Shown: one piece after another, positions 1 through 32,207 of the stretch
Layout of the letters: every line of letters starts with the position of its first letter
How positions within the stretch are numbered: position 1 is the stretch's first letter
Assembly: GCA_043750875.1 (NCBI GenBank)
Contig: JAYVAQ010000479.1
Span: 1 to 40,681 of the forward strand
Length of the DNA: 40,681 nt
From: Rhodanobacteraceae bacterium
GTDB taxonomy: Bacteria > Pseudomonadota > Gammaproteobacteria > Xanthomonadales > SZUA-5
Direction of reading: 5' to 3'
Notes under the pieces: generated by a model
What the model was told of the DNA's origin: nothing
What the model saw: the letters and a program-made list of their open reading frames with translations, nothing else
The model's database searches: none
Made by a program: the position numbers and the translations under genes

Positions 1-731
1 GAAACACCGACGAGAAAAAGCGGTAGCAAAGCGATCAACGGGTGCGCCAATTTTTCACCAGAAAATGCGGCCGGCTCATTAATTAGGTTGCTACCATAAC
101 CTTCACCGACTGCCACAGCACAGCGCCGCCGCCATTCCAAATAGCTCATGCCCGCAATAAAAATAATCACGCCGCCTAGGCTGCCAAGAATCGGCGCGGC
201 CCAGGCATTGGTGCCAAAAAATGCCGCTGGGATAATGTTTTGAATCTGCGGCGTGCCGGGCAAAGCATCCATCGTAAAAGTAAATGCGCCCAAGGCGATC
301 GTGCCGGGAATCAAGCGTTTTGGGATGTCATTTTGGCGAAACAGCTCGGCCGCAAATGGATAGACCGCAAACACCACGACAAACAGCGACACGCCGCCGT
401 AAGTCAGCAAAGCACACACGGCAACGATCGACAGCATCGCGCGCTGCGGGCCGAAAAGACGAATGCTGGCCGCCACGATTGATTTGGAAAATCCGGAAAT
501 CTCGATCAACTTGCCAAAAATTGCACCCAACAAAAACACTGGGAAATACAGCTTAAGAAAGCCGACCATCTTGTCCATAAACAAGCCGGTAAACATTGGT
601 GCCACCAAGCTTGGATCGGTCAACAACACCGCAGCCATCGCTGCAATCGGCGCAAAGATAATCACGCTGTAGCCGCGATACGCGACGAACATGAGAAAGC
701 TCAGTGCCGCGAGCACGATCAGGAAAGTCAT
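1..731 (-). CDS. GntP-family permease (H+:gluconate / D-beta-hydroxybutyrate permease type), 5' part only; C-terminus lies beyond the left edge
   Basis: Absent from the ORF track because it runs off the window. The reverse complement from ATG at 731 reads without stops to position 1: MTFLIVLAALSFLMFVAYRGYSVIIFAPIAAMAAVLLTDPSLVAPMFTGLFMDKMVGFLKLYFPVFLLGAIFGKLIEISGFSKSIV... It is very hydrophobic and multi-TM, a typical GntP permease N-terminus. Confidence 0.8.
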   Translation of the reverse strand, partial: MTFLIVLAALSFLMFVAYRGYSVIIFAPIAAMAAVLLTDPSLVAPMFTGLFMDKMVGFLKLYFPVFLLGAIFGKLIEISGFSKSIVAASIRLFGPQRAMLSIVAVCALLTYGGVSLFVVVFAVYPFAAELFRQNDIPKRLIPGTIALGAFTFTMDALPGTPQIQNIIPAAFFGTNAWAAPILGSLGGVIIFIAGMSYLEWRRRCAVAVGEGYGSNLINEPAAFSGEKLAHPLIALLPLFLVGV

Positions 732-873
732 TCGCGATGGACCTACGTAAAGTGCAAGCGCTCAGTTTATTTGACACGCGCCGTGCCGCCATCGTACCAA
801 GGTACAAGTGTGCAACCCTGGGGCGGCACTTTATGCTGATGCCAATTTCCAAGCCATCAACGAAGGTAGAACC

Positions 874-3144
874 ATGACCCGCAATCAACTGAGCCTAGCC
901 ATTGGCCTATCGCTCCTCGTAGGTGCGCCATTTTTCAGCGGCACCTCTAAGGCCTTTGCGCAGGACGCAGAGCAAGCCAATGAAAGTAGCGATGTGACTT
1001 TGGATGAGATTAAAGTGACCGCGCGGCGTCGGGAAGAAACCTTACAAGATGTGCCAGTCGCGGTCACTGCGTTTACGCCAGAAACCATCGACAAACTCAA
1101 CGTGCGTGATTTAGGCGATCTAGATGCGCAGGTTCCTAACTTAACCATTTATGCCGCGCGCGGCTCGAACAGCACGATCACTGCCTATATTCGCGGCGTG
1201 GGTCAGTCTGATCCGCTCTGGGGCGTGGATCCGGGCGTTGGACTGTATTTGGATGATGTTTACATTGCCCGGCCACAGGGCGGCTTGCTAGACGTGTTCG
1301 ATATCGGGCGCTTAGAAGTATTGCGCGGGCCGCAAGGAACGCTGTATGGCAAAAACACTATTGGCGGTGCGATCAAATATATTTCGCGCGACTTGCCGAC
1401 GGAATTAGAAGGCTCGGCGCAGATCGGTATCGGCAGCTACAGCCAGAGAGATTTTAACGGCGCAGTCGGCGGCCCGGTCGGTGAAAACGTGCGCATGCGA
1501 ATTGCCGCCGCCAGCCTCAATCGCGACGGCTTTGGCGAAAATATTGTGACTGGTGAAGATGTCAGCGACAAAGATATTCAAGCGGTGCGCTACAGCGCAG
1601 GCTATTTTGCCAATGACAGCAGTTTCGATATCCGCTTTAGCTTGGACTACAGCAAAGATGCCTCAGGCGTGCGCGGCGCGCAAATGCTCAGCACCAATTT
1701 TCGCGATCCAACAAATCCTGATCAATTGCCGCTAACTGATCGCTACGATGTCCGCAATGGCATGCCAAACGTCAATGAGACCACCTTGAGCGGCGCTTCG
1801 ATCATTGCCAATTGGCAGATCAATGACAATTGGCTGCTCAAATCGGTGACCGCGAAACGCAAGTCCGACACCGCCACCTATATCGACTTTGACACGCTGC
1901 AGCAGCAGCTTACCGATGTCAAAGCGTTCTACAACGATGATCAGCTAAGCCAAGAATTCCAAGCCAGCTTTGATGCCGCTGGCAACCACCGTGGCGTGTT
2001 GGGCGTGTATTGGTTCAAAGGCGAGGCCGGTGGTTTGGTGCAAAACGTGTTCTTAAAAGGCGCCGATATCCCACCGTTCTTCGCCGCACCTCCAGGTCCA
2101 GGTTTTGCCGGCCAATTTGGCGAAACCCGCGGTGATGTCGACACCAAAAGCATCGCGGTCTATGGCGACTGGGTTTATGACTTCACTGATAAATTTAGCG
2201 TCAATGGCGGCTTGCGCTACACCAAAGAAGAAAAGACTGCGCTAGTAAATAACCGCAGTTTTGCCAACGACAGTTTTGGCACGCCAACAGCGACGGTAGG
2301 TTTTAACAAATCAAAAACCTTCACCAACTTGTCGCCAAAAATATCGCTGGACTACAAGCTAAGCGAAGAAACTTTGCTATATGGCTTGTTCGCACGCGGC
2401 TTCAAATCCGGTGGCTATAACATTCGCGCCAGTGTGTTGCCGAATTCGCAGGAACCGTATGAAGACGAACAGGTCGATAGCTTGGAAGTAGGCAGCAAGA
2501 TGTCCTTCCTAGACCAACTCATGTTCCTGAACTTGGCGTATTTTCATAACAAATACAAAGACATCCAGCTGTCGGTATTTACCTCATGCAACGTGGGCGG
2601 CGTGGCGTCTTTCTGCGCCGACTTTACCAATGCGGGTAAAGGCACGGTTTCAGGTGCAGAGTTAGAACTGCAGCTGCGTCCAAGCGAAAACTGGTTTATC
2701 AGCGGCAATATCGCCACGCTCAACGCCAAATTCGACGAATACCTGTTCAAAGGCACAAATATTGCGGGTAACCAAGAATTCACCAATGCCCCTGACTTTT
2801 CTGGCGCGCTGAATGTTGAATATATTCAACCACTTAACGTGGGCGGGCAGCTAAGCTATCGAGTAAGCTATTCCACCCAAAGCGATGTGACCGCGACCAC
2901 GGAAGTGGTGCGTGACCCGGTGACCGGCGTAATTACGAACCCGATCAAACAAAACGGCTATGGTTTGCTCAGTGCTGGTGTGCAGTGGAAAACCGCGAGC
3001 GACTGGTTGCTTTCGTTGCAAGCGAGCAACTTGACGGACAAGAAATACCTAGTCACTGGCTATGTGATTCCAGCGACCGGCGTGCGCACCGGCTTTTATG
3101 GCGCGCCTAGACAAATTAGCCTGACCGCGCGCTACAGTTTCTAA
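874..3144 (+). CDS. TonB-dependent outer-membrane receptor
   Basis: The ORF is 808..3144. The likely true start is ATG 874, giving a signal peptide MTRNQLSLAIGLSLLVGAPFFSGTSKAFAQ, with GAAGG upstream. It has a TonB-box-like DEIKVTA, plug motifs (LEVLRGPQGTLYGKNTIGG), beta-barrel repeats and a terminal ...LTARYSF (C-terminal Phe). Confidence 0.9.
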   Translation: MTRNQLSLAIGLSLLVGAPFFSGTSKAFAQDAEQANESSDVTLDEIKVTARRREETLQDVPVAVTAFTPETIDKLNVRDLGDLDAQVPNLTIYAARGSNSTITAYIRGVGQSDPLWGVDPGVGLYLDDVYIARPQGGLLDVFDIGRLEVLRGPQGTLYGKNTIGGAIKYISRDLPTELEGSAQIGIGSYSQRDFNGAVGGPVGENVRMRIAAASLNRDGFGENIVTGEDVSDKDIQAVRYSAGYFANDSSFDIRFSLDYSKDASGVRGAQMLSTNFRDPTNPDQLPLTDRYDVRNGMPNVNETTLSGASIIANWQINDNWLLKSVTAKRKSDTATYIDFDTLQQQLTDVKAFYNDDQLSQEFQASFDAAGNHRGVLGVYWFKGEAGGLVQNVFLKGADIPPFFAAPPGPGFAGQFGETRGDVDTKSIAVYGDWVYDFTDKFSVNGGLRYTKEEKTALVNNRSFANDSFGTPTATVGFNKSKTFTNLSPKISLDYKLSEETLLYGLFARGFKSGGYNIRASVLPNSQEPYEDEQVDSLEVGSKMSFLDQLMFLNLAYFHNKYKDIQLSVFTSCNVGGVASFCADFTNAGKGTVSGAELELQLRPSENWFISGNIATLNAKFDEYLFKGTNIAGNQEFTNAPDFSGALNVEYIQPLNVGGQLSYRVSYSTQSDVTATTEVVRDPVTGVITNPIKQNGYGLLSAGVQWKTASDWLLSLQASNLTDKKYLVTGYVIPATGVRTGFYGAPRQISLTARYSF

Positions 3145-4226
3145 TGCGCGCGTCTCAATCGGACTTACGCCCAGCGTTTGCGCAAGCACACCTGGGCGGC
3201 TTTTTCGCACTGTTGTTGGGTATAAATTTAATGGGCTTGAGCGCGTGCCACAAAGCGCCCGTGGCTGAACTTCCCAAGCTCAACATTGACCCCAACCGCA
3301 TCGCAGTTGCAGGCATGTCATCGGGCGCTTACATGGCGACCCAGGTGCACCTCGCGTTTTCTGATCACCTAATCGGTGCGGGCCTGGTGGCGGGCGGGCC
3401 GTATGGCTGCACCAAAGGTGATCTGGACACCGCGCTCAGCACTTGCATGAAGGGCGCGCCCGCAGCACCAGATGCCGCAGGCTTGGCGGGGGTTGCAGTT
3501 GAACGCGGTGTTACTCGGCACTTGGCACCGATTGCGGGCTTAAACGGTGATCGCGTGCTAATTGTGCATGGCGCACTAGATCAGATGGTGGCAAGTTCGG
3601 TGGGGACGGCGAGTTACGACTTTTATGCTGCTTTGGCGCGCCTGCCTGAGGCAAAGGACTTGAAGCTACGCTTGGATGCCGAGCGCAAATTTGCCCATAC
3701 CTTTCCTACGCAAGCCAGTGGCACAGAGTGCGGGGTAAGTGTTTCGCCGTATTTAGGAAGCTGCAAATTTGATGCTGCAGGCGAAATCATGCGCGAAATA
3801 TTTGCCGCGCCATCACTTGATGCAGCACCAGCGGCAACGGGGGAATTACGCAGCTTTAACCAGGATGCGTATCTAATCGACGGCGCAGATGCGTATCTGG
3901 CCAGCAGCGGCTATCTCTATGTTCCGAAGGTTTGCAGCGATCCACTAGCACCGGCCTGTGGCCTGTTGATCGCGTTCCATGGCTGCGAACAAAACGCGGA
4001 TAAAGTGGGTGAGGCGTTTGTGCGCGATGCTGGATTTAATCGCTGGGCGGATCAGCTGCAGGTGGTGGTGCTCTACCCACAAACGCGGGCGAGCTACTTT
4101 CCACTGAATCCTAAAGCCTGTTGGGATTGGTGGGGTTTTTCCGGTAAGGATTTTGATGTCCGCAGTGGCGTGCAGCCGCGTTGGGTAGCGCGTGCCAGTG
4201 CGGCATTGGGTGCGCCGCTAGAGTAG
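3144..4226 (+). CDS. PHB-depolymerase-family esterase: lipoprotein, catalytic domain only, type-2 motif order
   Basis: The ATG overlaps the TAA of the receptor gene (TAATG at 3142..3146). There is a lipobox LMGLSAC. The lipase box AGMSSGAYMA is near the N-terminus. The motif LLIAFHGCEQN...NPKACWDWWG (the esterase_PHB oxyanion-type motif) is near the C-terminus. No linker or substrate-binding domain is present. Confidence 0.75.
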   Translation: MRASQSDLRPAFAQAHLGGFFALLLGINLMGLSACHKAPVAELPKLNIDPNRIAVAGMSSGAYMATQVHLAFSDHLIGAGLVAGGPYGCTKGDLDTALSTCMKGAPAAPDAAGLAGVAVERGVTRHLAPIAGLNGDRVLIVHGALDQMVASSVGTASYDFYAALARLPEAKDLKLRLDAERKFAHTFPTQASGTECGVSVSPYLGSCKFDAAGEIMREIFAAPSLDAAPAATGELRSFNQDAYLIDGADAYLASSGYLYVPKVCSDPLAPACGLLIAFHGCEQNADKVGEAFVRDAGFNRWADQLQVVVLYPQTRASYFPLNPKACWDWWGFSGKDFDVRSGVQPRWVARASAALGAPLE

Positions 4227-4266
4227 GCTCTGGTATTAGCTTAAGGCGCGCGAGTTTGGACCACGA

Positions 4267-7200
4267 ATGTTGACCGACACCTTTGTCGTAATCGCCGGTT
4301 TACTTTGGCTGGGCCTACTGTTTGCAGCAGCGCTTTGGGCCGAGAGACGCCCCAATTTTTTGGCCAAATACTGGTCTGCGGTTTACAGCCTTTCGCTGGC
4401 GGTGTATTGCACATCATGGACCTTTTACGGCACCGTGACCCAAGCTAGGCGCTCGGGTTGGCCGATTCCACCGACTTTTGTTGGCAGCATTTTGCTGTAT
4501 GCCTTCGGCTTTGCAGTATTGCGCAAACTGCTGCGGCTAGCGCGTGAAAATAACTCAACCTCGTTGGCGGATTTAATTGCGACGCGCTTGGGTAAGAATT
4601 CTTGGCTGGCGGCGGCGGTAACCTTTGTCGCGGTGCTGGGCATCATTCCCTATATCGCGCTGCAACTAAAAGCGGTGGCGATGAGCTACGGCTTATTGAC
4701 GCGCGCCACCGATTTGACACCGCCCGCGTGGCAAGATAGTGCGCTGTACGTCGCCTTGGCGATGGCGCTATTCGCGATGCTGTTTGGTACCCGGCGCGCC
4801 TCAGCGGCCGAGCACAACCGTGGTTTGGTGCTGGCGATGGCGTTAGAAGCCTTACTAAAACTGAGCGCGATGTTGGCGCTGGGCGCGTTCGTATGGTTCG
4901 GCCTGAAATTGCCCGCCGCAGCGAACCTGCAATTGCCACTGGCTTTACAAAACGAGGGCGCAAGCGGTTTTCCGGCACTGATTGCGCTCGGCGCATTGGC
5001 GATGCTAACGCTGCCACATCAGTTTCATGTGGGCGTTGTTGAATGTCGGGATGAGGCGAATTTGCGCACCGCGCGTTGGCTGTTTCCCCTGTACTTGCTG
5101 CTGATTGCGCTGCCAATTTTGCCGCTGGCACATGCAGGTGATGCGTTACTTGCGCCACTGGGTGTGCCATCGGATATGTATGTTTTGGCACTGCCGCTGT
5201 CGCAAGGTTACGACGCGCTGGCGCTGTTTGCATTCTTAGGCGGCCTGAGTGCCGCCACCGGCATGGTGATTATCTCGACCTTGGCGCTGAGCGTGATGAT
5301 TGGCAACCACTGGCTTACGCCGCTGATGGTGCGCCGTGCTTGGGCGCAGCCAGCGGTGGGCGACTTGCGTGGCGCGGTGCTGATGCAGCGGCGCGTAGGG
5401 ATCTTAGGCGTGGTTTTGCTGGCCTGGGGCTACAGCCGCGCGATTGCCGGTAGTGATGCCTTGGCCGATATTGGCGCGGTGTCGTTTTCGGCGCTGGCGA
5501 CTTTGGCCCCGGCATTGGGATATGCGATTTGGCGCCCACAAACGCCGCCAATGGCGGTGTTGTTGGGTTTGCTGAGTGCCGTGCTCATTTGGGCCTGGGC
5601 ACTGCTGGTGCCCTCGTTAGTTGAAGCCGCAGGCGGTGGTGTTTGGCTGAGCCAAGGGCCGTTCGGCATCAGCATTTTGGCACCGGATTTGCTGCTCGGC
5701 TTGGAGAGTTGGAGCCGCCTAGGCCGCGCGGTGTTGTTAAGTCTGCTGGTCGGCACGGGTGTTACTGCATTCGCTGCGGTAAAGCTGCCTGAAAATGCAA
5801 CCGCACTGCGCAGTGGCGCACTATCGATTGCGGCATTGCGGGATTTAGCGCTGCGATTTTTGCCCGCCACCGAGGTGCAAAACCTACTCAGCGATGCCAG
5901 TGAAAATAGCGCCGAGCCCAAAAGCAACCCGGTGCGTGCATTGGCGCATCTTGAGGCGCGAATCGAGCGCGAACTAGCCTCCGTGCTGGGCTCTGCATCG
6001 GCCAGATTACTGCTCAACGCCGCTCGACGTGAGCAGGGGCGCGATTTAGATAGCGTGGCGGAAATTGTCGGCGAGGCCTCGCAAGCGCTGCGTTTTAATC
6101 GGCGGGTTTTGGAAGCGGCACTGCAAAATATGTCGCAAGGAATCAGCGTTGTTGATGCCAGTTTGCGCCTGATGGCGTGGAACCGCCGCTACGCCGAACT
6201 GTTTGAATATCCGACTAGTTTGCTGCATGTGGGCGTGCCCATAAGCGAACTGGTTCGCCACAATATTCGCCGGCGTCTAGCCTCTGAAAACTTGAGCGAG
6301 CAAGACATTGCCAGCGAAGTAGACAAGCGCGTGCGCCACATGCGCGCCGGCACACCTTATGTGGTCGAGCGTAACTTCGAGACAAATCCGGCCGAACAGA
6401 CGACACGGCAGGCAATCGTCGTGGAGATTCGCGGCAACCCGATGCCGGGCGGAGGCTTTGTCGCCACCTTTACCGACGTCACCGACTTTAGGCGCGCCGA
6501 AACCGAGCTCAAATCCATCGCCGAATCGCTAGAGCAACGCGTCGCCGAACGCACCGCGCAGCTGGCCGGTGCGATGACGATTGCCGAGCGCGCGAATCGC
6601 GCCAAGTCGCGCTTCCTGGCCGCCGTGAGTCATGATTTAGCACAACCGCTCAACGCCGCGCATCTATTCACGCACGCGTTGGCACAGCGCTTACAACATG
6701 AAGACTATCGACAAGAAATTAACAACATTGATCACGCGCTAAACTCCGCCGAAGGATTGCTGTCGGGCTTGCTCGATATTTCCCAGCTAGACGCGGGCGG
6801 CATGACGCCGAAAATTCAGGCCTTTTGCATTGCTGAGCTTCTGCAACATTTGGCCGCCGAGTTTCGCGTAATTGCCGAAGCGAAGGGTTTGATTTTACGC
6901 TGTGTTGGCAGCCAAGCCTGGGTGCGCAGCGACCCGCAACTCCTTCGTCGGGTGCTGCAAAATTTTCTGACCAACGCGGTGCGCTACACCGCCTCCGGGC
7001 GTGTATTACTGGGTTGCCGCTTGTTGCACGATCACATTCGCATTGAAGTTTGGGATACCGGCGTTGGCATTGAAGCCGCCGATCAAAAAGTCATTTTTGA
7101 GGAGTTTCGTCGGCTAGGGCACGGCGGCTTGGGGCATGGCAGCGCGCAGGGCATGGGCTTAGGGTTATCGATCGCCGAACGCATCGCACACCTGCTTGGG

Positions 7201-7686
7201 CACAGCATTAGCCTGCGCTCGCGCATTGGCGTCGGCACCGTATTTGCGCTGAATGTGGCGCGCGCGCCAACGGAAATCGTGGCCACAATTCCGCTGCCAA
7301 AAGTGCTGGAACATACGCCCAGTAGCCGCGTTTTAGTTGTGGACAATGACGCAGATGTACTGCGCGCAATGCAGGCGCTATTGAGCACCTGGCAGTGCGA
7401 AGTTCAGGCTGCGCGTACCTCGGCCGAGGCGCTGCGTTTGGTCGATGCGGCAACACCCGATTTGCTGCTATTGGACTATCACCTGGACAGCGAACTAACC
7501 GGTTTAAAGCTTAGGCTAGATCTTATTGCCCGTATCGGGCCACGGCCGTGCGTGATTATTACCGCGGATCAAAGTGAAGCCCTGCGTGATGCGGTAGCCG
7601 ATGCGGGCTGTCAGCTGTTATACAAACCACTGAAGCCACTGGCATTGAAATCGATGATGGCGCGTTTGTTGGCGGCGGCGGAATAG
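4267..7686 (+). CDS. Hybrid sensor histidine kinase with an N-terminal sodium:solute-symporter-like (SLC5) membrane domain, PAS, HisKA, HATPase_c and receiver domains (CrbS/MxtR-like architecture)
   Basis: 1139 aa. About 500 aa of multi-TM N-terminus resembles SSS transporters. A helical linker follows (candidate STAC region). The PAS-like region reads GISVVDASLRLMAWNRRYAELF. The H-box is FLAAVSHDLAQPLNAA, the N-box LQNFLTNAVRYT, G1 VWDTGVGI and G2 GMGLGLSIA. The receiver reads VLVVDNDADVL...DLLLLDYHL...YKPLKP. Confidence 0.85.
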   Translation: MLTDTFVVIAGLLWLGLLFAAALWAERRPNFLAKYWSAVYSLSLAVYCTSWTFYGTVTQARRSGWPIPPTFVGSILLYAFGFAVLRKLLRLARENNSTSLADLIATRLGKNSWLAAAVTFVAVLGIIPYIALQLKAVAMSYGLLTRATDLTPPAWQDSALYVALAMALFAMLFGTRRASAAEHNRGLVLAMALEALLKLSAMLALGAFVWFGLKLPAAANLQLPLALQNEGASGFPALIALGALAMLTLPHQFHVGVVECRDEANLRTARWLFPLYLLLIALPILPLAHAGDALLAPLGVPSDMYVLALPLSQGYDALALFAFLGGLSAATGMVIISTLALSVMIGNHWLTPLMVRRAWAQPAVGDLRGAVLMQRRVGILGVVLLAWGYSRAIAGSDALADIGAVSFSALATLAPALGYAIWRPQTPPMAVLLGLLSAVLIWAWALLVPSLVEAAGGGVWLSQGPFGISILAPDLLLGLESWSRLGRAVLLSLLVGTGVTAFAAVKLPENATALRSGALSIAALRDLALRFLPATEVQNLLSDASENSAEPKSNPVRALAHLEARIERELASVLGSASARLLLNAARREQGRDLDSVAEIVGEASQALRFNRRVLEAALQNMSQGISVVDASLRLMAWNRRYAELFEYPTSLLHVGVPISELVRHNIRRRLASENLSEQDIASEVDKRVRHMRAGTPYVVERNFETNPAEQTTRQAIVVEIRGNPMPGGGFVATFTDVTDFRRAETELKSIAESLEQRVAERTAQLAGAMTIAERANRAKSRFLAAVSHDLAQPLNAAHLFTHALAQRLQHEDYRQEINNIDHALNSAEGLLSGLLDISQLDAGGMTPKIQAFCIAELLQHLAAEFRVIAEAKGLILRCVGSQAWVRSDPQLLRRVLQNFLTNAVRYTASGRVLLGCRLLHDHIRIEVWDTGVGIEAADQKVIFEEFRRLGHGGLGHGSAQGMGLGLSIAERIAHLLGHSISLRSRIGVGTVFALNVARAPTEIVATIPLPKVLEHTPSSRVLVVDNDADVLRAMQALLSTWQCEVQAARTSAEALRLVDAATPDLLLLDYHLDSELTGLKLRLDLIARIGPRPCVIITADQSEALRDAVADAGCQLLYKPLKPLALKSMMARLLAAAE

Positions 7687-7718
7687 TTCAGGAGTCTGAT
7701 GCCATAGAGATCAACCTA

Positions 7719-7745
7719 GTATTACAATCACGACCACTGTAATAC
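7719..7745. promoter_or_regulatory. Inverted repeat GTATTACA-N11-TGTAATAC upstream of vapB; candidate antitoxin operator overlapping a TACAAT -10-like hexamer
   Basis: Perfect 8-bp arms lie at 7719..7726 and 7738..7745, ending 15 nt before the vapB ATG. TACAAT lies at 7723..7728. Type II antitoxins usually autoregulate through palindromes. Confidence 0.35.
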
Positions 7746-7760
7746 AAACGGAGCTAAACC

Positions 7761-8000
7761 ATGTCGACTACCCTCACCAGTAAAGGCCAAGTCACCATCC
7801 CCAAGCAGATTCGTGACGCCCTAAGCATGACCCCCGGCTGTTCTGTGGATTTTGCTGTGAACGCGCAGGGCGATGTGGTGATTCACAAAGTCGGCGTCCA
7901 TACAAGCCAGAAGCCGGATCGCTTCGACGCCGCACGCGGCAAGGCTGACTTAAAGTGGCGCACTGACGATTTAATGGCGATGCTGCGCGGTGAGGGTTGA
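7761..8000 (+). CDS. vapB: AbrB/SpoVT-fold type II antitoxin (VapB-type)
   Basis: 79 aa. MSTTLTSKGQVTIPKQIRDALSMTPGCSVDFAV is the SpoVT/AbrB looped-hinge-helix signature. GGAG lies 9 nt upstream. The stop overlaps the start of the PIN gene. Confidence 0.8.
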   Translation: MSTTLTSKGQVTIPKQIRDALSMTPGCSVDFAVNAQGDVVIHKVGVHTSQKPDRFDAARGKADLKWRTDDLMAMLRGEG

Positions 8001-8410
8001 TGCTGCTCGTTGACACCAATGTGCTCGTCGACGTGCTTGAGGATGATCCGCAATGGGCGGACTGGTCCATCCGGCAACTGCGCGCGCAAGCCAAAATTCA
8101 TCGGCTGGCAATCAATCCCATAATTTATTCCGAACTATCGCTGACATTCTCCACCGTCGAGGCACTCGATCAAGCCGTAACGGACTTGGACCTAGTCGTA
8201 CTCGAAATTCCTAGACCCGCGCTATTTCTGGCCGGCAAAGCATTTGTTCGCTACCGCCGTCAGGGTGGAACCAAGGGCAATGTCTTGGCGGATTTTTATA
8301 TTGGCGCGCATGCTGCGGTGTCAGGGCTTACGCTGTTGACGCGCGATACCCGGCGATATAAATCCTATTTCACCGGCGTGAATTTGATTGCGCCGGAAGT
8401 TGCGAATTGA
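8000..8410 (+). CDS. vapC: PIN-domain ribonuclease toxin (VapC)
   Basis: MLLVDTNVLVDVLE...YSELS...LADFYIGAHA...LLTRDTRRY supplies the conserved acidic PIN residues. The ATG at 8000 overlaps the vapB TGA (TGATG); the ORF track starts one codon earlier, at TTG 7997. Confidence 0.85.
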   Translation: MLLVDTNVLVDVLEDDPQWADWSIRQLRAQAKIHRLAINPIIYSELSLTFSTVEALDQAVTDLDLVVLEIPRPALFLAGKAFVRYRRQGGTKGNVLADFYIGAHAAVSGLTLLTRDTRRYKSYFTGVNLIAPEVAN

Positions 8411-8844
8411 ATGGCATTGCCGTTGAAAAAGGAGGTCGTTGCCTTTCTCAATTCGGCCAAAGGCGGTGATCTTTACATTGGGTTCGATGACGATGGCGAA
8501 GTGGTGGGGGTTGCGGATGTAGATGCCCAGATGCTCAATAGTCACGGCCTGAGTCACGGCCTGAGTCACGGTCTGAGTCACGGCCTGAGTCACGGTCTGA
8601 GTCACGGTCTGAGTCAGGGGCAGAGCCGCTGGCACAGAAATTACTGTTTCTATTGCGCGCCGCGCCATTGTCCAAATCGGACCTAGCCCTTCGGTCAATG
8701 TCTTGCTGGAACAAGCCATGATCGAGAGATCCCTGCCCGACAAACCCCAAAGCAGCCTGCAAAAATATCGTCTGACTCAGGCCGGGCGGCAGTGGCTTAA
8801 ATTGGGTGGAGCGCAGAAAGCAACAAGCGGGAATTTAGAATGAG
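8411..8844 (+). pseudogene. Decayed remnant of an AlbA_2 (Schlafen-like) / ATPase / winged-helix putative transcriptional regulator
   Basis: One frame reads LKKEVVAFLNSAKGGDLYIGFDDDGEVVGV, which is the AlbA_2 core motif but lacks the usual N-terminal ~25 aa. It then reads through the tandem repeat and terminates at 8686. A different frame is open from 8542 to 8844 and reads AEPLAQKLLFLLRAAPLSKS...LLEQAMIERSLPDKPQSSLQKYRLTQAGRQWL, the typical C-terminal wHTH tail of the same family. The ~350 aa in between are missing. Confidence 0.55.
8540..8617. repeat. 12-nt tandem repeat AGTCACGG(C/T)CTG, six full copies plus a partial seventh
   Basis: Read directly. Units lie at 8540, 8552, 8564, 8576, 8588 and 8600, with partial AGTCAG at 8612. 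Only one position varies (C/T at position 9 of the unit). Confidence 0.95.
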
Positions 8845-9009
8845 TAAGGTTTTTACGCTGGAGCGCGCGGTAATTGAGGAGCTACCAGAAAGATTAGCTC
8901 TTTAAAGAGAGCTAAAAGCCCCGGCCTTCTTAAAGCGCAGCGGGTTTTGGTGACGAATGCCCAGCGAATCAAATCTGCCTTACATACCGGCTACCGATGC
9001 GAATTAGCT

Positions 9010-9702
9010 CTATGAAGCGCTCGCATCACTGGAACTCTGGGTATCCAACGAACGCGCCGGATCACTCAACTCCAGCGTGCGCAATAAAACCCCCGCTTGG
9101 GTGCGATTGCGCACCGCCAATTTCTCGAAAATCGCGCTCATATGCGCTTTCACAGTGCGTTCTTGAATGTTGAGCTCATCGGCGATCTGCTTATTCAAAC
9201 GCCCATTGGCAACACGCACCAGCACTTTAAATTGCTGCGGGCTCAGGCTTGCTAGGCGCGCTGCGTTTTGTCGGTCACTGGCATCAATGCGCGCGCTGGC
9301 TACCGCATCACGCAACTTCGGCGGCACGTATTGCTCACAGTCCAACACCGCGCGAATACCGGCTTGTAACTCCGTTAAATCGGCGCGTTTGGTCAGATAG
9401 CCCGCAGCGCCATAAGCCAAAGCCCGTCGAATCGTTATCGCGTCATCGTGCGCGGAAATCATCACTACCGCGACCCCAGGATGCTCTGCACGCAAGGCCG
9501 CTAAACCCATTAGCCCGTGGCTTCCGGGCATATGCAAATCGAGCAACACCAAATCGGTATCGGGGTATTTGATCAGCGCAGCACGTGCCGCATCCAGATC
9601 GTGCGCTTCACTCAGTTCTGCCTCTGGCATAACCCCACGCACCGCTTGTACCAGCGCAAGCCGATACAGCGGGTGGTCGTCAGCGATGAGTAAGCGGGTC
9701 AT
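9010..9702 (-). CDS. LuxR/FixJ-family (NarL-type) response regulator; likely partner of the hybrid kinase (CrbR/ErdR-like)
   Basis: MTRLLIADDHPLYRLAL...DLVLLDLHMPG is the receiver domain. LSPQQFKVLVRVANGRLNKQIADELNIQERTVKAHMSAIFEKLAVRNRTQA is the LuxR HTH. The ORF-track start at 9774 is a TTG; ATG 9702 gives the canonical receiver N-terminus. Confidence 0.9.
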   Translation of the reverse strand: MTRLLIADDHPLYRLALVQAVRGVMPEAELSEAHDLDAARAALIKYPDTDLVLLDLHMPGSHGLMGLAALRAEHPGVAVVMISAHDDAITIRRALAYGAAGYLTKRADLTELQAGIRAVLDCEQYVPPKLRDAVASARIDASDRQNAARLASLSPQQFKVLVRVANGRLNKQIADELNIQERTVKAHMSAIFEKLAVRNRTQAGVLLRTLELSDPARSLDTQSSSDASAS

Positions 9703-9803
9703 GCACTGATGGTATGCCACCCGCGTCGCCGGTGGTATCAAACTGATGGCGCAGTGGACCAAAGTACAATGCAAACGCCAGCATGGATTGTTATCGTCTA
9801 GGC

Positions 9804-11717
9804 ATGAAAAACCTTTCTTTTTTAGCCGTTTCCCAGCGATTGACGACGTTGTTGTTTGTCAGCCTGGCCGTCACCGGCTGCGCGCGCACCCTACACTCTG
9901 GCCACCCCAAACTTGACACCGTTGGAGCGCCAATGATTCTTGAGCTAATCGCCAGTGAAACATCTGAGCATCGTGGCAGCGATGATCTTTTAAGCGCAGG
10001 CTTAGGCGCTGCGGGCCTGCGTAATCCGGTTGCGCCGGCTTTTGTTGCGCCGGAAAAGCCTAGTGCTGCAGAGCTGCGTCGTCGCGCGATTTGGACCAAT
10101 TGGCGCGGCATCGCCGATTTGAGCGTAGGCGGTGGTTACGGCGAATTTTATGGCTCGCTGACTGCAGTGCCGGGGCGCGAATTTCATGCTTTGGCAATTC
10201 TGCCGAAGACAAAGCAGCCGCATCGGGTGCTGGTGCAATTGCCGGATGCATTTGATTTGGCAAAAAGGTGCGTGGTGGTCACTGCCTCGTCCGGCTCGCG
10301 CGGCATTTACGGCGCGATAGCGCTCGCCGGCGGCTGGGGGCTGCCGCGCGGCTGTGCCGTGGCTTACACCGATAAAGGCGCGGGAACGGGCTATGTCGAT
10401 ACCGGCAACCCGCAGCGTATGACGCCTAGCGGCACAGGCGCGATGAGCTGGGAACCGACAGAATTTAACGCCGAGCCATTTTCCGGCGAGGGCGCTGCGC
10501 CAATTGCAATAAAACACGCGCATTCCGGTGATAACCCTGAAGCCGATTGGGGCAATCACGTGCGTCAAGCCGCCGATTTCGCGCTAACGACGCTGAGTGC
10601 TGCGTACCCGAATGAAAGCGCGTTTACCCATGCCAATACCAAAATCATCGCGGTCGGCGTTTCCAACGGTGGCGGCGCGGTGCTGCGTGCGGCGCAATTG
10701 GAAGAACCTTGGCTGGACGGCGTGGTCGCGGTATCGCCTAATATTTGGGCTGCTGACAGCACGGGCGCACGCCCGCTTTATGATTACGCCACCGAAGCCG
10801 CGATTTGGTTGCCGTGCGCGCTGAACGCTACTGCGTTTGACAAAGTGCTGCTGGCACGGCCCGGCGGCGTGAAATCGCCGGTCGGCGCCAGCCGTTGTGG
10901 TGCACTGCATAAGTTGGGTTGGCTGAAAACGACGACATTGGAGGAACAGTACGAGGAAGCGTATGGCTACCTCAAAGGCTTGGGCTGGACCGATGTCGCG
11001 CTCAGCGCAAGTGCGCTCAGCACCAGCTTTGATTTGTGGCGCGCCGTGGCGGTGACCTATGCCTCCGCCTACGCGCGCAGCGATGCCAGCCGCATGCCTT
11101 GCGGCTACGCTTTTCACGCGCTCGGCAGTGACGGCAAAGCGCGCGCGCCAACATTAGCCGAGGCCGTTGCATGGAGCAGTGATGCATCGGGCATCGCACC
11201 TGGCGCAGGGGTTTTTATAACTGATTCGCTCGCGCAAACGCCTGCGGCAAATGCCGCAGATCCAGCACTTGCTGGGCTGCTTTGTCTGCGTGCGTTATGG
11301 CAGGGCAAAAGCGAAATCGCCACGACGGTAAACACCAGCATCGCAGCGACGGCAGCAAAACCGCCGCGGGTTGGCCTTGCCACGATTGTGATCCATGGGC
11401 TTGACGACGGTTTAATTCCGGCCGCCTTCAGCAGCGCGCCCTATGTCGCACACGCCAAATCGCAGGGCCGCAATGTGCGCTATTGGCGCGTGCACAACGC
11501 GCAGCACTTTGACGCCTTTATTGGGCTGCCGGTTTGGGCTAGCCGCTACGTGCCGCTGATGCCGTATGCCTATCACGCGCTCGATGCGATGTGGTTGCAT
11601 GTATCGCAAGCGGCTGAATTACCGGCGGATGCCGAGCTGATGACTACACCGCGTGCGCTGGGTGCGGCGGGGGTTAGTCCGTTGACGGCGGCGAATTTGG
11701 GTTTGTTGCCGCAGTAG
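9804..11717 (+). CDS. D-(-)-3-hydroxybutyrate oligomer hydrolase family protein, lipoprotein
   Basis: MKNLSFLAVSQRLTTLLFVSLAVTGC is a signal peptide with a lipobox. GSDDLLSAGLGAAGL...PSAAELRRRAIWTNWRGIADLSVGGGYGEFYG matches my recollection of the 3HB-oligomer hydrolase family N-terminal signature. GVSNGGG is a nucleophile-elbow-like motif. An alternative start is ATG 9783. Confidence 0.8.
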   Translation: MKNLSFLAVSQRLTTLLFVSLAVTGCARTLHSGHPKLDTVGAPMILELIASETSEHRGSDDLLSAGLGAAGLRNPVAPAFVAPEKPSAAELRRRAIWTNWRGIADLSVGGGYGEFYGSLTAVPGREFHALAILPKTKQPHRVLVQLPDAFDLAKRCVVVTASSGSRGIYGAIALAGGWGLPRGCAVAYTDKGAGTGYVDTGNPQRMTPSGTGAMSWEPTEFNAEPFSGEGAAPIAIKHAHSGDNPEADWGNHVRQAADFALTTLSAAYPNESAFTHANTKIIAVGVSNGGGAVLRAAQLEEPWLDGVVAVSPNIWAADSTGARPLYDYATEAAIWLPCALNATAFDKVLLARPGGVKSPVGASRCGALHKLGWLKTTTLEEQYEEAYGYLKGLGWTDVALSASALSTSFDLWRAVAVTYASAYARSDASRMPCGYAFHALGSDGKARAPTLAEAVAWSSDASGIAPGAGVFITDSLAQTPAANAADPALAGLLCLRALWQGKSEIATTVNTSIAATAAKPPRVGLATIVIHGLDDGLIPAAFSSAPYVAHAKSQGRNVRYWRVHNAQHFDAFIGLPVWASRYVPLMPYAYHALDAMWLHVSQAAELPADAELMTTPRALGAAGVSPLTAANLGLLPQ

Positions 11718-14519: not shown

Positions 14520-15284
14520 ATGCGAATTTTACAACCTTTTTCCTACTTGTTCGCAGCCGCGCTAGTAGTCAATGCTTGGCATAGCGCCGCGAACGCGGTG
14601 GCAACGAACAGCAACCCAGAAATCCATGCGGCAGTCGCGGCTTTGAATCCGCAACTTAAAGTATCCAGCATCAAAGATTCCGCTATTCCCGGCGTGAAAG
14701 AGGTCATCGTCGGCTCAGAAGTCCTTTATTTTAGTAGCGATGGCAAACATTTGATTCAAGGCACCATGTTTGAAACCAGCACCAAGCGCAATCTGACTGA
14801 CGACGCGCTTGCGGGCATTCGTGTGAACGCGCTAAAAGGCGTCGTTGCGAAAGACATGATCGTCTTCCCGGCCAAGGGTAAGCGCTTGCATTCGATTAAA
14901 ATCGTGTCCGACATTGACTGTGGCGTATGCCGAAAGCTGCATTCTGAGATCGCACAATTTACCGATGTCGGTATCGAAGTGCAGTATCTGATCATGCCGC
15001 GCAACGGTTTGACCGATGATTCGGCGCGCAAAGCGACTGCGGTGTATTGCGCCGCTAACCCGCAAAAGGCGCTTACAGAAGCGAAAAGTGGCAGCGATCC
15101 CGGCAATGCTAACTGCCCGAATCCAGTTGCACGCAATGTTGCACTTGCGAGTGCGCTAGGCATCAATGCCACACCCACATTAGTGTTTGCAGATGGCGGC
15201 ATCACGCCTGGCTACTTACCGGCGGCGGCACTACTCGCTGAGCTTGATCGCCGCGCCGCCATCAGTGTTAAAAAGCCGCTCTAA
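14520..15284 (+). CDS. Periplasmic thiol:disulfide interchange protein, DsbC/DsbG family (paralog 1, CGVC active site)
   Basis: It has a signal peptide, an N-terminal dimerisation domain, the thioredoxin-fold motif DIDCGVCRKLH, a second Cys pair (VYCAANP...NANCPNP) and a cis-Pro region GINATPTLVF. Confidence 0.8.
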   Translation: MRILQPFSYLFAAALVVNAWHSAANAVATNSNPEIHAAVAALNPQLKVSSIKDSAIPGVKEVIVGSEVLYFSSDGKHLIQGTMFETSTKRNLTDDALAGIRVNALKGVVAKDMIVFPAKGKRLHSIKIVSDIDCGVCRKLHSEIAQFTDVGIEVQYLIMPRNGLTDDSARKATAVYCAANPQKALTEAKSGSDPGNANCPNPVARNVALASALGINATPTLVFADGGITPGYLPAAALLAELDRRAAISVKKPL

Positions 15285-15386
15285 AGGACGCTCGCCCTTC
15301 GCGCAATCGCAAAGTACACTCAGCTCCCTGAAAAAATCCTCATCCTTGTCAAAACTTTTTTTGCAATTATCTACTCTGGAAAAACC

Positions 15387-16145
15387 ATGCGCTTTTCGAC
15401 TTCATTTGTTTCGCGGTGTCGCCTTCCGGCGAGACTACTCGCCACCGCTATCTTGGCTGCTACCTCCTTTGCACAAGCGGGTGAAGCACAAGTGCGTGCG
15501 GCGATCAAAATGTTAAATCCTTCAGCGGTCATCGACTCGGTCAAAGCCACGCCGGTCAAGGGCTGGATGGAAGCGACATTGGGCGGGCAAATTATTTATT
15601 TCAGTGAAGACGGTAAATATTTGCTACAGGGCGCACTGGTGGAAACGGCCACGCGGCGCAATTTGACCGAAGAATCGCAGTCGGTGGTGCGCGTTGCGGA
15701 ACTGGCCAAGATTAAAAAGAAAGACATGATCATCTTTCCGGCCAACGGCCCGACTAAACATGTCGTTAAAGTATTCACCGACATTGATTGCGGCTACTGC
15801 CGCAAGCTGCACACAGAAATTAAGCAATACAGCGATCTGGGCATAGAGGTGCAATATCTTTGGTTCCCTCGCGCCGGCGTTCCGAGCGAATCTTCCCGCA
15901 AAGCGATCGCTGTTTTCTGCGCTAAAGATCAGCGTAAGGCGATGACGGATGCCAAAAACGGCACCGATCCAGGCAATGCAACCTGCATTAATCCAATTGA
16001 AGCGGATTACAACATGGGTCAACGCATGGGCGTGAACGGCACCCCGGCGTTACTGCTAACCGATGGCACTTTGATGCCCGGCTACTTGCCAGCGCCGCAG
16101 CTTTTGGTGGAGTTGGACAAACACGCGGCGACGAAGAAGAAGTAG
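15387..16145 (+). CDS. dsbC: Periplasmic thiol:disulfide interchange protein DsbC (paralog 2, CGYC active site)
   Basis: It has a signal peptide, TDIDCGYCRKLH (the canonical DsbC CGYC), a second Cys pair and GVNGTPALLL. By eye it is roughly half identical to the upstream paralog. Confidence 0.85.
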   Translation: MRFSTSFVSRCRLPARLLATAILAATSFAQAGEAQVRAAIKMLNPSAVIDSVKATPVKGWMEATLGGQIIYFSEDGKYLLQGALVETATRRNLTEESQSVVRVAELAKIKKKDMIIFPANGPTKHVVKVFTDIDCGYCRKLHTEIKQYSDLGIEVQYLWFPRAGVPSESSRKAIAVFCAKDQRKAMTDAKNGTDPGNATCINPIEADYNMGQRMGVNGTPALLLTDGTLMPGYLPAPQLLVELDKHAATKKK

Positions 16146-16209: not shown

Positions 16210-16824
16210 CTAGCGCCCGATCCAAAGCAACCAGCGCCACAACCCTAGGCCTGAGTGTTGCTCGTGCAGCTCGATGTGCGGGAATTGCTGCTGCAGCAAC
16301 GTAGCCAGCGCCCCATCCATCCGCACGTGATTGACGCCCATCCAGCGCGCGAACCAACGCGCCCGGGTGTTATCAAAGTCAACAATCGCTAATCGGCCGG
16401 TGGGCGTTAGCAGCTTTTGCAGCTTTTGCAGCGTTTGCGCAAGCTGATTGCCGGTCATCGATAACATGTAAGAACACACGATCAGATCGTATTGCATGCC
16501 TGGCATTTGCGCGATATCGGTGTTGCGTAAGCTGATGCGCGCGCGCGCATTAGGATCCAATTTTTGCACCAAATTTCGCCCTGCCTGCGCCAACATCGCG
16601 GCAGAAAGGTCAACGCCGGTAATTTGTGCCTGCGGAAACGCCTTTGCTAAAGCGCAAAGATTTTTGCCGGTGCCGCAGCCTAGATCGAGGATCTGTTTTG
16701 GCGCACCGGATGATCTGCTAAGCACCTGAATCAGGCGCGTGCGGCCGAACAAGAATGCCCAGCGAGTGGCATCATAAATCGGCGCATGTAGGCGGTAATA
16801 GCGCTTTAACGCTTCCGTACTCAC
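16210..16824 (-). CDS. Class I SAM-dependent methyltransferase, BtaB-like (candidate DGTS N-methyltransferase)
   Basis: The SAM motif I is ILDLGCGTGKN. At 204 aa it is about the size of BtaB. Its GTG start overlaps the TGA of the upstream BtaA-like gene (GTGA at 16821..16824). Confidence 0.65.
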   Translation of the reverse strand: MSTEALKRYYRLHAPIYDATRWAFLFGRTRLIQVLSRSSGAPKQILDLGCGTGKNLCALAKAFPQAQITGVDLSAAMLAQAGRNLVQKLDPNARARISLRNTDIAQMPGMQYDLIVCSYMLSMTGNQLAQTLQKLQKLLTPTGRLAIVDFDNTRARWFARWMGVNHVRMDGALATLLQQQFPHIELHEQHSGLGLWRWLLWIGR

Positions 16825-18035: not shown

Positions 18036-18062
18036 TCTGAACTCCTTAAAATTCGCATGCGC

Positions 18063-18614
18063 CTAGATGGCGCTGGCTTCGATTAACCAACCCAGCGCAA
18101 GCCAATACAGCCCTGCCCCCATCAACACGGCCGCCGCGACATCACTGGGATAGTGCAAACCCAGCACCACGCGTGAGATCGCAATGCCCATGCTCAGCGG
18201 CACCAACACGACCGCGAGCCAAGGGAAGTAATGGCAGGCCACCAGTGAAAACGCGACCGCGTGCAGCGTATGGCCTGAGGGAAAAGAAAACTCATCCAAC
18301 GGTGCCACGCTCAAATGCAGGCCCGCGCGACGCATCAATGGCCGCGGCCGTTTGCTGAGTGACTTGACGAGTTTGTAAAGCACTAGTGATGCCAAACCCA
18401 GTGCTGCCATGTGCAGCGCCGCAACCGCGCCGCGTGCGCCACCAAAAGCCACCAGCAGCGCCATCAACAAATACCAAACCGTACCGTCGCCAATACGGCT
18501 GATGAAGCCAAAAAACGGTACCCAACGCGTGCCGTGCGCACGCTTATTTGCGCGTTCACACCAAGACCACTCGTGCGCTGCGAATGCTTTAAACACGTTT
18601 GTATTCAGGTGCAT
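18063..18614 (-). CDS. PAP2-family lipid phosphatase, integral membrane
   Basis: The acid-phosphatase motifs are KSLSKRPRP ... FPSGHT ... SRVVLGLHYPSDV. The preferred start is ATG 18614, preceded by AAGGAG with a 6-nt spacer. The ORF-track start 18647 is a GTG with no SD. Confidence 0.8.
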   Translation of the reverse strand: MHLNTNVFKAFAAHEWSWCERANKRAHGTRWVPFFGFISRIGDGTVWYLLMALLVAFGGARGAVAALHMAALGLASLVLYKLVKSLSKRPRPLMRRAGLHLSVAPLDEFSFPSGHTLHAVAFSLVACHYFPWLAVVLVPLSMGIAISRVVLGLHYPSDVAAAVLMGAGLYWLALGWLIEASAI

Positions 18615-32190: not shown

Positions 32191-32207
32191 GTGAATGCTC
32201 CGTTTCC

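Follow-up and report, generated by a model that had tools for sequence, protein, structure and literature searches.

How the products of an extracellular polyester enter a Gram-negative cell is the question raised by a locus at positions 1..11717 of a stretch of DNA of 40,681 nt (40.7 kb; the whole stretch is called the window below) from a Rhodanobacteraceae bacterium (contig JAYVAQ010000479.1). Poly(3-hydroxybutyrate) (PHB) ranks among the main carbon stores of bacteria and among the leading biodegradable plastics, and the PHB field describes secreted depolymerases on the one hand and the cytoplasmic catabolism of 3-hydroxybutyrate (3HB) on the other. To our knowledge, it is nearly silent on the passage of breakdown products across the outer membrane. 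In a 2025 review on the biodegradation of polyhydroxyalkanoates (PHA), the words "uptake" and "outer membrane" are absent. In the locus in question, a gene for an inner-membrane permease is divergent from that of a TonB-dependent receptor (TBDR), which is followed by genes for a PHB-depolymerase-type esterase, a transporter-like sensor kinase, a LuxR-type response regulator and a 3HB-oligomer hydrolase (3HBOH). Gene identities were assigned from a listing of open reading frames (ORFs) and from profile searches (Pfam, and NCBIfam with curated cutoffs), by which every feature listed in a preliminary description of this sequence was recovered at its stated coordinates. The locus is a copy of a widespread gammaproteobacterial gene cluster, shared by numerous bacteria from soil and water, which on comparative grounds probably scavenges fragments of PHB.

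The best explanation for this cluster is a regulon for scavenging PHB-breakdown products by TonB-dependent uptake of oligomers and their digestion in the periplasm, to which we assign a probability of about 0.6. According to this model, 3HB oligomers would be present outside the cell, derived from the PHB of lysed cells by depolymerases of the community or of the bacterium itself, and would cross the outer membrane via the TBDR. Once in the periplasm, they would be exposed to a pair of exported hydrolases, in most cases anchored in the outer membrane, of which the type-2 depolymerase would act on longer chains and 3HBOH would convert short oligomers to monomer. The GntP-like permease would take 3HB inward and BdhA, where present, would oxidise it. 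Expression would be regulated by the SLC5-type transceptor kinase and its LuxR-type partner via a TGTAC-N4-GTACA site in divergent promoter regions, with a monocarboxylate product as the likeliest signal for the kinase.

Conservation and modularity of the receptor locus

Using the esterase as query and one genome per species, 80 esterase-encoding loci were collected (cited by L numbers, as are those of a second survey), and the proteins of the window were mapped onto them. The TBDR gene was found directly upstream of the esterase gene on the same strand in 54 of these loci, belonging mostly to Lysobacterales/Xanthomonadales (Arenimonas, Dyella, Rhodanobacter, Dokdonella, Aquimonas, Silanimonas and others) with one from Steroidobacteraceae, so that the pairing of a receptor with a type-2 depolymerase, noted initially in one sequence, is a recurrent arrangement. 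In all but one of them (53/54) the receptor stop codon lies within about 370 nt of the esterase catalytic domain. In the window the last base of the receptor TAA (3142-3144) is also the first base of the esterase ATG at 3144 (ttcTAATGcgc), as described before, and the same stop/start overlap could be observed in three loci, all from Arenimonas. These loci share an order in which the permease is divergent from the TBDR, the kinase comes after the esterase, and the regulator and 3HBOH are located a few kb downstream; the kinase follows TBDR/esterase in nearly all loci. L001, Arenimonas and Silanimonas have, between regulator and 3HBOH, a gene for BdhA, a 3-hydroxybutyrate dehydrogenase scoring above its NCBIfam cutoff.

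The TBDR gene lies 2-5 kb from the esterase gene in 15 more loci. In L071 a receptor of a different clade (B, see below) is encoded some 2 kb upstream and on the other strand. The Alteromonadaceae loci (14 genomes) are rearranged to kinase, regulator, TBDR (minus strand), permease (plus strand), E22 MetX-like esterase, type-2 esterase and, immediately after the latter, 3-hydroxybutyrate dehydrogenase. The flanking sequence retrieved with these loci contains no recognised 3HBOH, and the E22 MetX-like esterase, situated between the permease and the type-2 esterase, may be a non-homologous stand-in for the oligomer hydrolase. In Alteromonas sp. 4B03 it is annotated as "E22 family MetX-like putative esterase" (L075:8499-9890; NF005262, 615 bits) and carries an N-terminal extension. 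No TBDR is encoded nearby in ten or eleven of the 80 loci, including those of Rheinheimera, a cyanobacterium, a betaproteobacterium and Methyloceanibacter. Chance adjacency of TBDR and esterase is ruled out, because the gene order is conserved across orders and the loci share an operator-like palindrome, described below. The conserved order, the presence of bdhA in several lineages and the common palindrome also favour the earlier suggestion that the locus acts as a PHB/3HB utilisation unit with the TBDR tied into it.

A second survey with the TBDR as query examined six orthologues, 58-61% identical, from genera outside the first survey (Pseudoxanthomonas, Lysobacter yangpyeongensis, Alkalisalibacterium, Cognatiluteimonas, a JGI genome and Rehaibacterium). 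All six of these clade-A orthologue loci show the permease/TBDR-kinase arrangement, and none encodes the esterase (0/6; by tblastn in three and by gene tables in the other three). The regulator and an exported 3HBOH are present in five, with a gene for an SDR (bdhA-like) between them in four, while L085 has TBDR, permease and kinase with both esterase and 3HBOH missing. Since six of six orthologous TBDR loci are without the esterase and five keep 3HBOH, the depolymerase is seen from these comparisons as an accessory gene slotted between TBDR and kinase, and the notion that a TBDR-depolymerase pair constitutes the unit is discarded. By the same comparisons, the conserved core consists of TBDR, permease, transceptor kinase/regulator and exported 3HBOH, with or without BdhA. 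A cell that exports an oligomer hydrolase would be expected to have oligomers in its periplasm, and the continued linkage of this enzyme to the TBDR is the best available argument for 3HB oligomers as the probable cargo of the receptor. The import of 3HB oligomers initially proposed for the receptor is thereby strengthened on genomic grounds.

The same modularity bears on another reading, in which the locus serves small carboxylates in general (acetate, pyruvate or 3HB monomer) under CrbS/CrbR-type control, the TBDR binds a non-polyester ligand and the hydrolases are passengers. The regulons of this kinase/regulator family do concern acetate, propionate and pyruvate, and the trio of TBDR, permease and kinase is retained where the esterase is missing and, in L085, where 3HBOH is missing as well. 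However, 3HBOH and/or BdhA accompany the TBDR in 5/6 esterase-less loci and in most esterase-bearing ones, the palindrome is common to the TBDR/permease and 3HBOH/bdhA promoters, the regulator falls well under the ErdR orthologue cutoff, and there would be neither precedent nor need for a TBDR that takes up molecules as small as acetate, which makes such a general carboxylate locus quite improbable.

Some further genes were observed in or around individual loci. In two genomes, class III PHA synthase genes (PhaE, followed by an alpha/beta-hydrolase that is PhaC-like) are located downstream of 3HBOH (L087:19670-22176 and L088:21297-22184), with one intervening gene in L087; thus, some Lysobacteraceae have the uptake/degradation locus beside PHB synthesis. 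In Rehaibacterium, a group II intron-type reverse transcriptase (RVT_1 and GIIM domains) is encoded between TBDR and kinase (L088:12635-13987). Upstream of the permease in L001, no thiolase or acetoacetyl-CoA synthetase gene was found, and this position is occupied by the unrelated genes pgk, GNAT, Sua5 and a DUF3857 gene.

The two exported hydrolases and their compartment

The esterase matches the NCBIfam model NF050059 "extracellular catalytic domain type 2 scl-PHA depolymerase", a family of the DED superfamily, with 297.1 bits at a cutoff of 280, its residues 43-349 corresponding to profile positions 1-299 of 305 and only 11 residues remaining after the catalytic domain. The extent of this match excludes both linker and substrate-binding domain, in agreement with the preliminary description, and the enzyme is devoid of the linker and C-terminal substrate-binding domain typical of canonical bacterial extracellular enzymes. 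The lipobox and the motifs described initially were all located: GMSSG at 57-61, HGC at 279-281 (oxyanion) and CWDWWG at 326-331 are invariant in 16 diverse homologues, as is the triad Ser59/Asp146/His185, which aligns with that of the structure 2D80. Type-2 enzymes are defined by a GxSxG motif N-terminal to the oxyanion-hole His, a hydrophobic x1 and a Ser-Asp-His triad (Knoll et al. 2009), and in the esterase G57-M-S59-S-G61 indeed precedes H279-G-C281.

Comparison with solved structures gave a match to PDB 2D80/2D81 (E 1.9e-44 across residues 43-346, 29% identical), that is, to the PHB depolymerase of Penicillium funiculosum, for which 2D81 contains a bound 3HB trimer. An AlphaFold (AF2) model of the esterase (pLDDT 80.3, pTM 0.83) retrieved only 2D80/2D81 as strong Foldseek matches (E 2e-28, TM 0.75/0.84). 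Sequence and predicted fold alike show the esterase to be homologous over its full length to the Penicillium enzyme, with which it shares the single domain, the circularly permuted type-2 order, the triad and HGC, so that its place in the PHB-depolymerase family, put up for checking at the outset, is upheld and it can be regarded as a predicted PHB/3HB-oligomer hydrolase. The fungal enzyme is freely secreted, whereas that of the window carries a bacterial lipoprotein signal and is encoded in an operon with a TBDR. A total of 1248 homologues were retrieved at E <= 1e-10, and among the best 120 of these 1248, lengths are mostly 328-383 aa apart from one shortened match, indicating a large family of catalytic-domain-only enzymes.

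The second hydrolase matches the 3HBOH family with 425.8 bits at a cutoff of 27, residues 59-639 corresponding to positions 26-664 of 688 in the profile; the family signature read from its sequence earlier is thus borne out, and the protein is a predicted hydrolase of 3HB dimers/oligomers to monomer. The extracellular 3HB-oligomer hydrolase of Ralstonia pickettii, which we take to be the founder of Pfam 3HBOH, resembles it in the near full-length PF10605 match and in being exported, with activity being predicted for the protein of the window. Lipoprotein anchoring and linkage to a TBDR are features of the window-type locus that set it apart from the Ralstonia enzyme.

The export signals of both proteins are informative as to the compartment. 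The esterase has the lipobox LMGLSA-C35, and at least 88 of the best 120 homologues have a lipobox by a strict pattern, while about 7-9 of the same 120 have an ordinary signal peptide without the cysteine, and the Alteromonas esterase of L075 likewise has an ordinary signal peptide and is not a lipoprotein. The lipobox of 3HBOH is AVTG-C, and most of its orthologues have one, with ordinary signal peptides in a few or several. Homologues retain the N-terminal extensions with their lipoboxes, which favours the long forms of both proteins. Lipoprotein anchoring of the two hydrolases is, as far as signal sequences tell, common but not universal. The preliminary description had taken the lipoprotein nature of both enzymes to suggest degradation at the cell surface or in the periplasm; the lipoboxes are indeed there, but since some esterases and 3HBOHs have ordinary signal peptides, they do not imply degradation at the surface. 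For both hydrolases the periplasm is no less probable a location than the cell surface. Action in the periplasm is favoured over action at the surface because some lineages do without anchoring, the tether is very short, the esterase is optional and a Sus-like partner is wanting.

These observations weigh on the surface-digestion model put forward initially, here taken to include release on vesicles or by secretion, in which a lipoprotein depolymerase attacks solid or amorphous PHB outside, the TBDR takes the products made beside it and 3HBOH finishes the digestion in the periplasm. It is in line with the full-length homology of the esterase to a fungal enzyme of one domain, which needs no binding domain to degrade PHB, and the operon-like coupling of TBDR and esterase recalls the enzyme/transporter pairs of polysaccharide loci; moreover, a lipoprotein polyesterase encoded beside a TBDR was argued in a 2026 study to be exposed at the surface. 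The tether from the lipid-modified Cys to the catalytic domain is, however, only about 8 residues long, some orthologues are not lipoproteins, the receptor is not of the SusC type and has no SusD-like partner, and the esterase is missing in 6/6 of the sampled TBDR loci, five of which keep 3HBOH. Digestion at the surface is hence unlikely, though it deserves more credit than any of the other alternatives.

An exported enzyme comparable to the esterase is PhaZ1 of Rhodospirillum rubrum, a periplasmic enzyme with a type-2-like domain, the likeness being one of description. It reportedly also has no substrate-binding domain. It is alphaproteobacterial, with no TBDR linkage reported, and its physiological substrate and role are still called unclear in the literature. 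This enzyme, being without an agreed substrate and with membrane-associated PHB proposed for that part, lends itself to a reading in which the exported enzymes turn over oligo-PHB of the cell's own envelope, or PHB of prey or neighbours in the periplasm, with the TBDR not being the supplier, and the class III PHA synthase genes adjoining the locus in two genomes would fit with it. Envelope-PHB turnover leaves unexplained the near-obligatory presence of TBDR and permease, the promoter palindrome held in common and the operon coupling of TBDR and esterase, and we give it hardly any credence. If uptake by the TBDR as preferred here is true, it provides a plausible substrate supply for periplasmic PHB depolymerases and a reason for the existence of exported depolymerases without binding domain, such as R. 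rubrum PhaZ1.

Receptor, permease and regulatory genes

The translation of the receptor gene reveals a signal peptide (ending in AFA, before QD), the TonB box VTLDEIKVTA, a plug and a 22-strand-type barrel, and plug and barrel profiles above cutoff leave its initial assignment as a TBDR in place. None of the NCBIfam TBDR models comes near its cutoff with the receptor of the window, and a PDB search gave generic matches only (FyuA, PhuR, BtuB) with no close solved relative. A siderophore or metal receptor is a reading without profile support that suits the locus context poorly. Orthologues with 46-62% identity fill the same slot in 35 loci, in addition to the six genomes without the esterase. 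The slot as a whole is occupied by at least four clades, designated A (35 loci, window included), B (17), C (14, Alteromonadaceae) and D (3), which are about 32-37% identical to one another. Within Arenimonas, A. malthae and A. caeni have clade B and A. donghaensis clade A; Rhodanobacter genomes are likewise split between clades. L001, the nearest relative of the window in esterase and kinase, yet has a clade-B receptor. The permease and the kinase beside the TBDR remain orthologous whatever the receptor clade, and because congeners carry different clades between orthologous flanking genes, the TBDR appears from these alignments to be swapped like a cassette between permease and esterase. Such swaps might reflect different oligomer specificities or else phage, bacteriocin or diversifying pressure on a surface protein.

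The preliminary description had further likened the locus to a Sus-type polymer utilisation locus, a comparison that does not hold: the receptor scores 31.2 bits against the SusC/RagA model TIGR04056 (cutoff 368.25), the gene after it encodes an esterase and no SusD/RagB match occurs in the locus, by which a Sus-type polysaccharide utilisation locus (PUL) is ruled out. The logic of Bacteroidota Sus-like PULs is similar in that a lipoprotein hydrolase is encoded beside an outer-membrane TonB-dependent importer, but these are systems of another phylum, and the locus of the window has neither a SusC/RagA barrel nor SusD nor evidence for surface exposure. A better analogy may be found in the proteobacterial utilisation loci centred on a TonB-dependent transporter (TBDT), such as that for polyethylene glycol (PEG) in sphingomonads, which includes PegB, and those for carbohydrates in Alteromonas and Xanthomonas, in which a TBDT is combined with enzymes, an inner-membrane transporter and a regulator. 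Such loci deal with a polymer or oligomer that is too large or too scarce for porins. The present locus differs from them in the polyester class of its predicted substrate, in the PHB-family esterases and in the pairing of an SLC5-type kinase with a LuxR-type regulator. Elsewhere in the window (19926..20948, minus strand), a protein of 340 aa combines a long spacer rich in Ala and Pro with a TonB domain (PF03544) at its C-terminus. It might energise the receptor, although its gene is located 16 kb off with no exbBD adjoining.

The permease orthologues are 465-467 aa long, 77-86% identical and divergent from the TBDR in about 50 genomes. Its divergent position is as first described, while membership in the GntP family is weak: the fragment in the window matches PF02447 with E 0.024 (13.8 bits, under the cutoff of 22.5), an Alteromonas orthologue matches TIGR00791 with 5e-9, far under cutoff, and the full-length orthologues of Dokdonella and L001 gave no match to GntP profiles (PF02447/TIGR00791). 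GntP_permease/CitMHS matches are on record for the orthologues of L085 and L088, and the family call of a distant GntP/CitMHS-like permease is a weak one. From its gene context, the permease is proposed to import 3-hydroxybutyrate.

The kinase, which together with the regulator lies between esterase and 3HBOH as reported initially, has a transporter-like N-terminus with about 13 transmembrane/hydrophobic segments, followed by PAS_7, HisKA, HATPase_c and REC domains, and matches NF041832 with 411 bits (cutoff 400). A Pfam scan of the N-terminus, even at E 0.1, gave no SSF/STAC match, with no separate test for STAC, and the transporter-like assignment is due to the match of residues 3-456 to the solved chain 10ed_A ("histidine kinase", E 3e-42), which we take to be the Pseudomonas CbrA transceptor (PMC13488458). 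In Pseudoxanthomonas the kinase is read in two frames, owing to a frameshift or a sequencing error (L083:12909-16147). The regulator, whose start was chosen by homology to a 230-aa call in L081, scores 210.3 bits against the ErdR model NF041830 (cutoff 390). By this score it is a member of the ErdR/CrbR family and not an ErdR orthologue, and is probably a paralogue with its own specificity. Known members of this kinase family respond to acetate, pyruvate or histidine (the CbrA paper PMC13488458 among the sources), and the CrbS/MxtR-ErdR regulons concern acetate, propionate and pyruvate. In two papers on that system 3HB is not named among the known MxtR/ErdR targets; a 3HB-responsive kinase in this locus is a reasonable inference from its genomic setting.

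A conserved palindrome offers a candidate link between these regulators and the locus. In the window its core, GTAC-N4-GTAC, is positioned midway between the divergent permease and TBDR start codons, and an exact GTACN4GTAC occurs once in the entire 40.7 kb, with 0.11 expected. A palindrome screen of 60 permease/TBDR intergenic regions returned TGTAC-N4-GTACA, and GTAC-N4-GTAC is present in 56 of the 60, at 57 copies in 12.3 kb versus 17 in the other 1.09 Mb of the loci, amounting to an enrichment of about 300-fold; the Alteromonadaceae form reads AGTAC-N4-GTACT. Many of the copies elsewhere are in the regulator/bdhA-3HBOH intergenic region (L001, L004, L009, L010, L011, L016, L083 and L084), with an exact GTACN4GTAC at the equivalent 3HBOH promoter in L001, L004, L009, L010, L011 and L016 and exact GGTACsAAAGTAC copies in the bdhA/3HBOH intergenic region of L083 and L084. 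The geometry, TAC-N4-GT(A/C), is that of the experimentally defined ACTU motif of CrbR (e.g., TACGAC-TAAA-GTCTAA and TACTAC-CATC-GTCGAA), with similar half-sites, and by this analogy the palindrome is proposed as a candidate binding site of the LuxR-type regulator of the locus. The putative circuit resembles CrbS/CrbR (MxtR/ErdR), CbrA and RpuS in kinase domain architecture, LuxR-type partner and the geometry of its candidate operator. It differs from them in the half-sites (GTAC as compared to (C/T)(G/T)AC...GTC in ACTU), in a regulator that is under the ErdR cutoff (210 vs 390 bits), and in the genes concerned, which are acs/actP for CrbS/CrbR and TBDR, permease and PHB hydrolases here.

Table 1. 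Positions in the window of the genes and sites of the locus and of the inserted genes.
Feature	Position	Strand	Basis or context
Inner-membrane permease, N-terminal 243 aa, runs off the window	1..731	-	Translation, orthologues
Palindrome CATCGTACCAAGGTACAAGT, core GTAC-N4-GTAC at 794..805	790..809		142-bp permease/TBDR divergent region
TonB-dependent outer-membrane receptor, 756 aa	874..3144	+	Plug 66.6 bits, beta-barrel 137.8 bits (PF07715, PF00593, above cutoffs)
Type-2 PHB depolymerase/esterase, single domain, 360 aa	3144..4226	+	NF050059
Hybrid sensor kinase, SLC5/STAC "transceptor" type (CrbS/MxtR/CbrA-like), 1139 aa	4267..7686	+	Pfam, NF041832
VapB-like antitoxin	7761..8000	+	MazE/PrlF match
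PIN/VapC toxin	7997..8410	+	PIN match
Truncated Schlafen/AlbA_2 ORF	8411..8686	+	SLFN_AlbA_2 match
NarL/LuxR-type response regulator, 230 aa from ATG at 9702	9010..9702	-	REC + GerE
One-mismatch palindrome GGACCAAAGTAC	9756..9767		Regulator/3HBOH intergenic region
3HB-oligomer hydrolase (3HBOH family), lipobox-bearing	9804..11717 (alternative ATG 9783)	+	PF10605

Appraisal of the proposed oligomer uptake and remaining features of the window

Several points weigh against uptake of 3HB oligomers by the TBDR and their digestion in the periplasm. The sequences establish which proteins are encoded, the stop/start overlap, a conserved and modular locus and the conserved palindrome; the functional reading as a whole, from what the receptor binds and where the enzymes work to what the kinase senses and which protein recognises the palindrome, rests on genomic inference. 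Dimers and trimers of 3HB (about 190-280 Da) could cross porins, hence a TBDR is not strictly needed for them. To judge by the profile and PDB searches, no characterised TBDR is close to the receptor, and given at least four receptor clades, with congeners differing, a single conserved ligand is an assumption. Since the fungal homologue of the esterase attacks solid PHB without a binding domain, the esterase could act at the surface instead. The lipoprotein and export status of esterase and 3HBOH depends on upstream start codons, and in a related contig from a metagenome, with an esterase 99% identical to that of the window, the gene caller chose downstream starts, by which both signal peptides are lost. 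The kinase/regulator pair could be a general carboxylate sensor. In the window itself, bdhA is not within the locus, and the 3HBOH promoter has only a one-mismatch palindrome; such one-mismatch sites number 15 in the window versus about 6 expected, so that this copy alone is weak. The bolder generalisation, that TonB-dependent transport of 3HB oligomers is real and widespread in Gammaproteobacteria, feeding periplasmic tethered hydrolases under a 3HB-responsive SLC5/STAC branch not recognised before and acting via GTAC-N4-GTAC, is held tentatively, at somewhat less than an even chance.

The idea that a PHB product is taken up by a TonB-dependent system has a precedent. The TBDT MASE_06600 of Alteromonas macleodii ATCC 27126 is induced by carbon limitation, and "polyhydroxybutyrate" was predicted as its substrate because a PHB depolymerase gene adjoins it (Manck et al. 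2020, PMC7190382). A search of the literature gave no experiment showing TonB-dependent uptake of PHB products or 3HB oligomers, in agreement with the earlier remark that such a function is not established, although uptake of this kind had already been predicted by Manck et al. 2020 (PMC7190382) and the idea is thus only partly new. The adjacency of a TBDT and a PHB depolymerase is the same in both cases, the two being likened by neighbourhood and not by established orthology. The clade-C TBDRs of Alteromonadaceae are about 33% identical to that of the window, and the Alteromonas locus L075 has a non-lipoprotein esterase, with the E22 MetX-like esterase where the window has 3HBOH. The work of Manck et al. 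2020 (PMC7190382) is a neighbourhood prediction, with no survey, regulator/operator or oligomer hydrolase. What is new beyond it is the breadth and modularity of the locus, the finding that the enzyme regularly accompanying the TBDR is 3HBOH and not the depolymerase, the conserved ACTU-like palindrome and the swapping of receptor clades.

Should oligomer uptake via the TBDR be true, PHB oligomers would be a contested resource, captured directly rather than only as monomer. The combination of TBDR, permease, transceptor kinase, 3HBOH and palindrome would provide a marker set for PHB scavengers in metagenomes, and the regulatory genes with their promoter would provide a candidate 3HB-responsive sensor/promoter pair for biosensing. 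The idea is testable, as cultured carriers exist in Dyella, Rhodanobacter, Arenimonas, Lysobacter and Alteromonas.

Within the locus, scans for sigma-70 promoters and terminators gave matches at chance level. The VapB/VapC genes and the Schlafen remnant between kinase and regulator (7761..8686) are missing from most orthologous loci but are present in the closely related metagenome contig whose esterase is 99% identical; they look like a mobile insertion unrelated to the pathway. The truncated Schlafen/AlbA_2 ORF includes 6.4 copies of the 12-nt tandem repeat AGTCACGGCCTG (8540..8616), translated as an (HGLS)n stretch.

Downstream of the locus, tandem paralogous ORFs of 254 and 252 aa (14520..16145, plus strand) are found, the first with DsbC_N and thioredoxin-like domains and the second DsbC-like by eye. 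A four-gene block (16210..19815, minus strand) encodes an S-adenosylmethionine (SAM) methyltransferase, a DUF3419 protein, a PAP2 phosphatase and a GT4 glycosyltransferase; DUF3419 is presumably a BtaA-like family, and the block may function in a putative synthesis of phosphorus-free membrane lipids. Three overlapping or adjacent genes (22729..25192, plus strand), encoding the membrane proteins DUF2157 and DUF4401 and a GDYXXLXY protein, have the look of one module. An apparent type IV pilus minor-pilin cluster (28204..35348, minus strand) ends with a PilY1 of 1328 aa (PF05567 by scan), the FimU/PilV/PilW/PilX-like ORFs upstream of which were assigned by eye, and is followed by a gene for a DPP-IV family peptidase (35454..37769).

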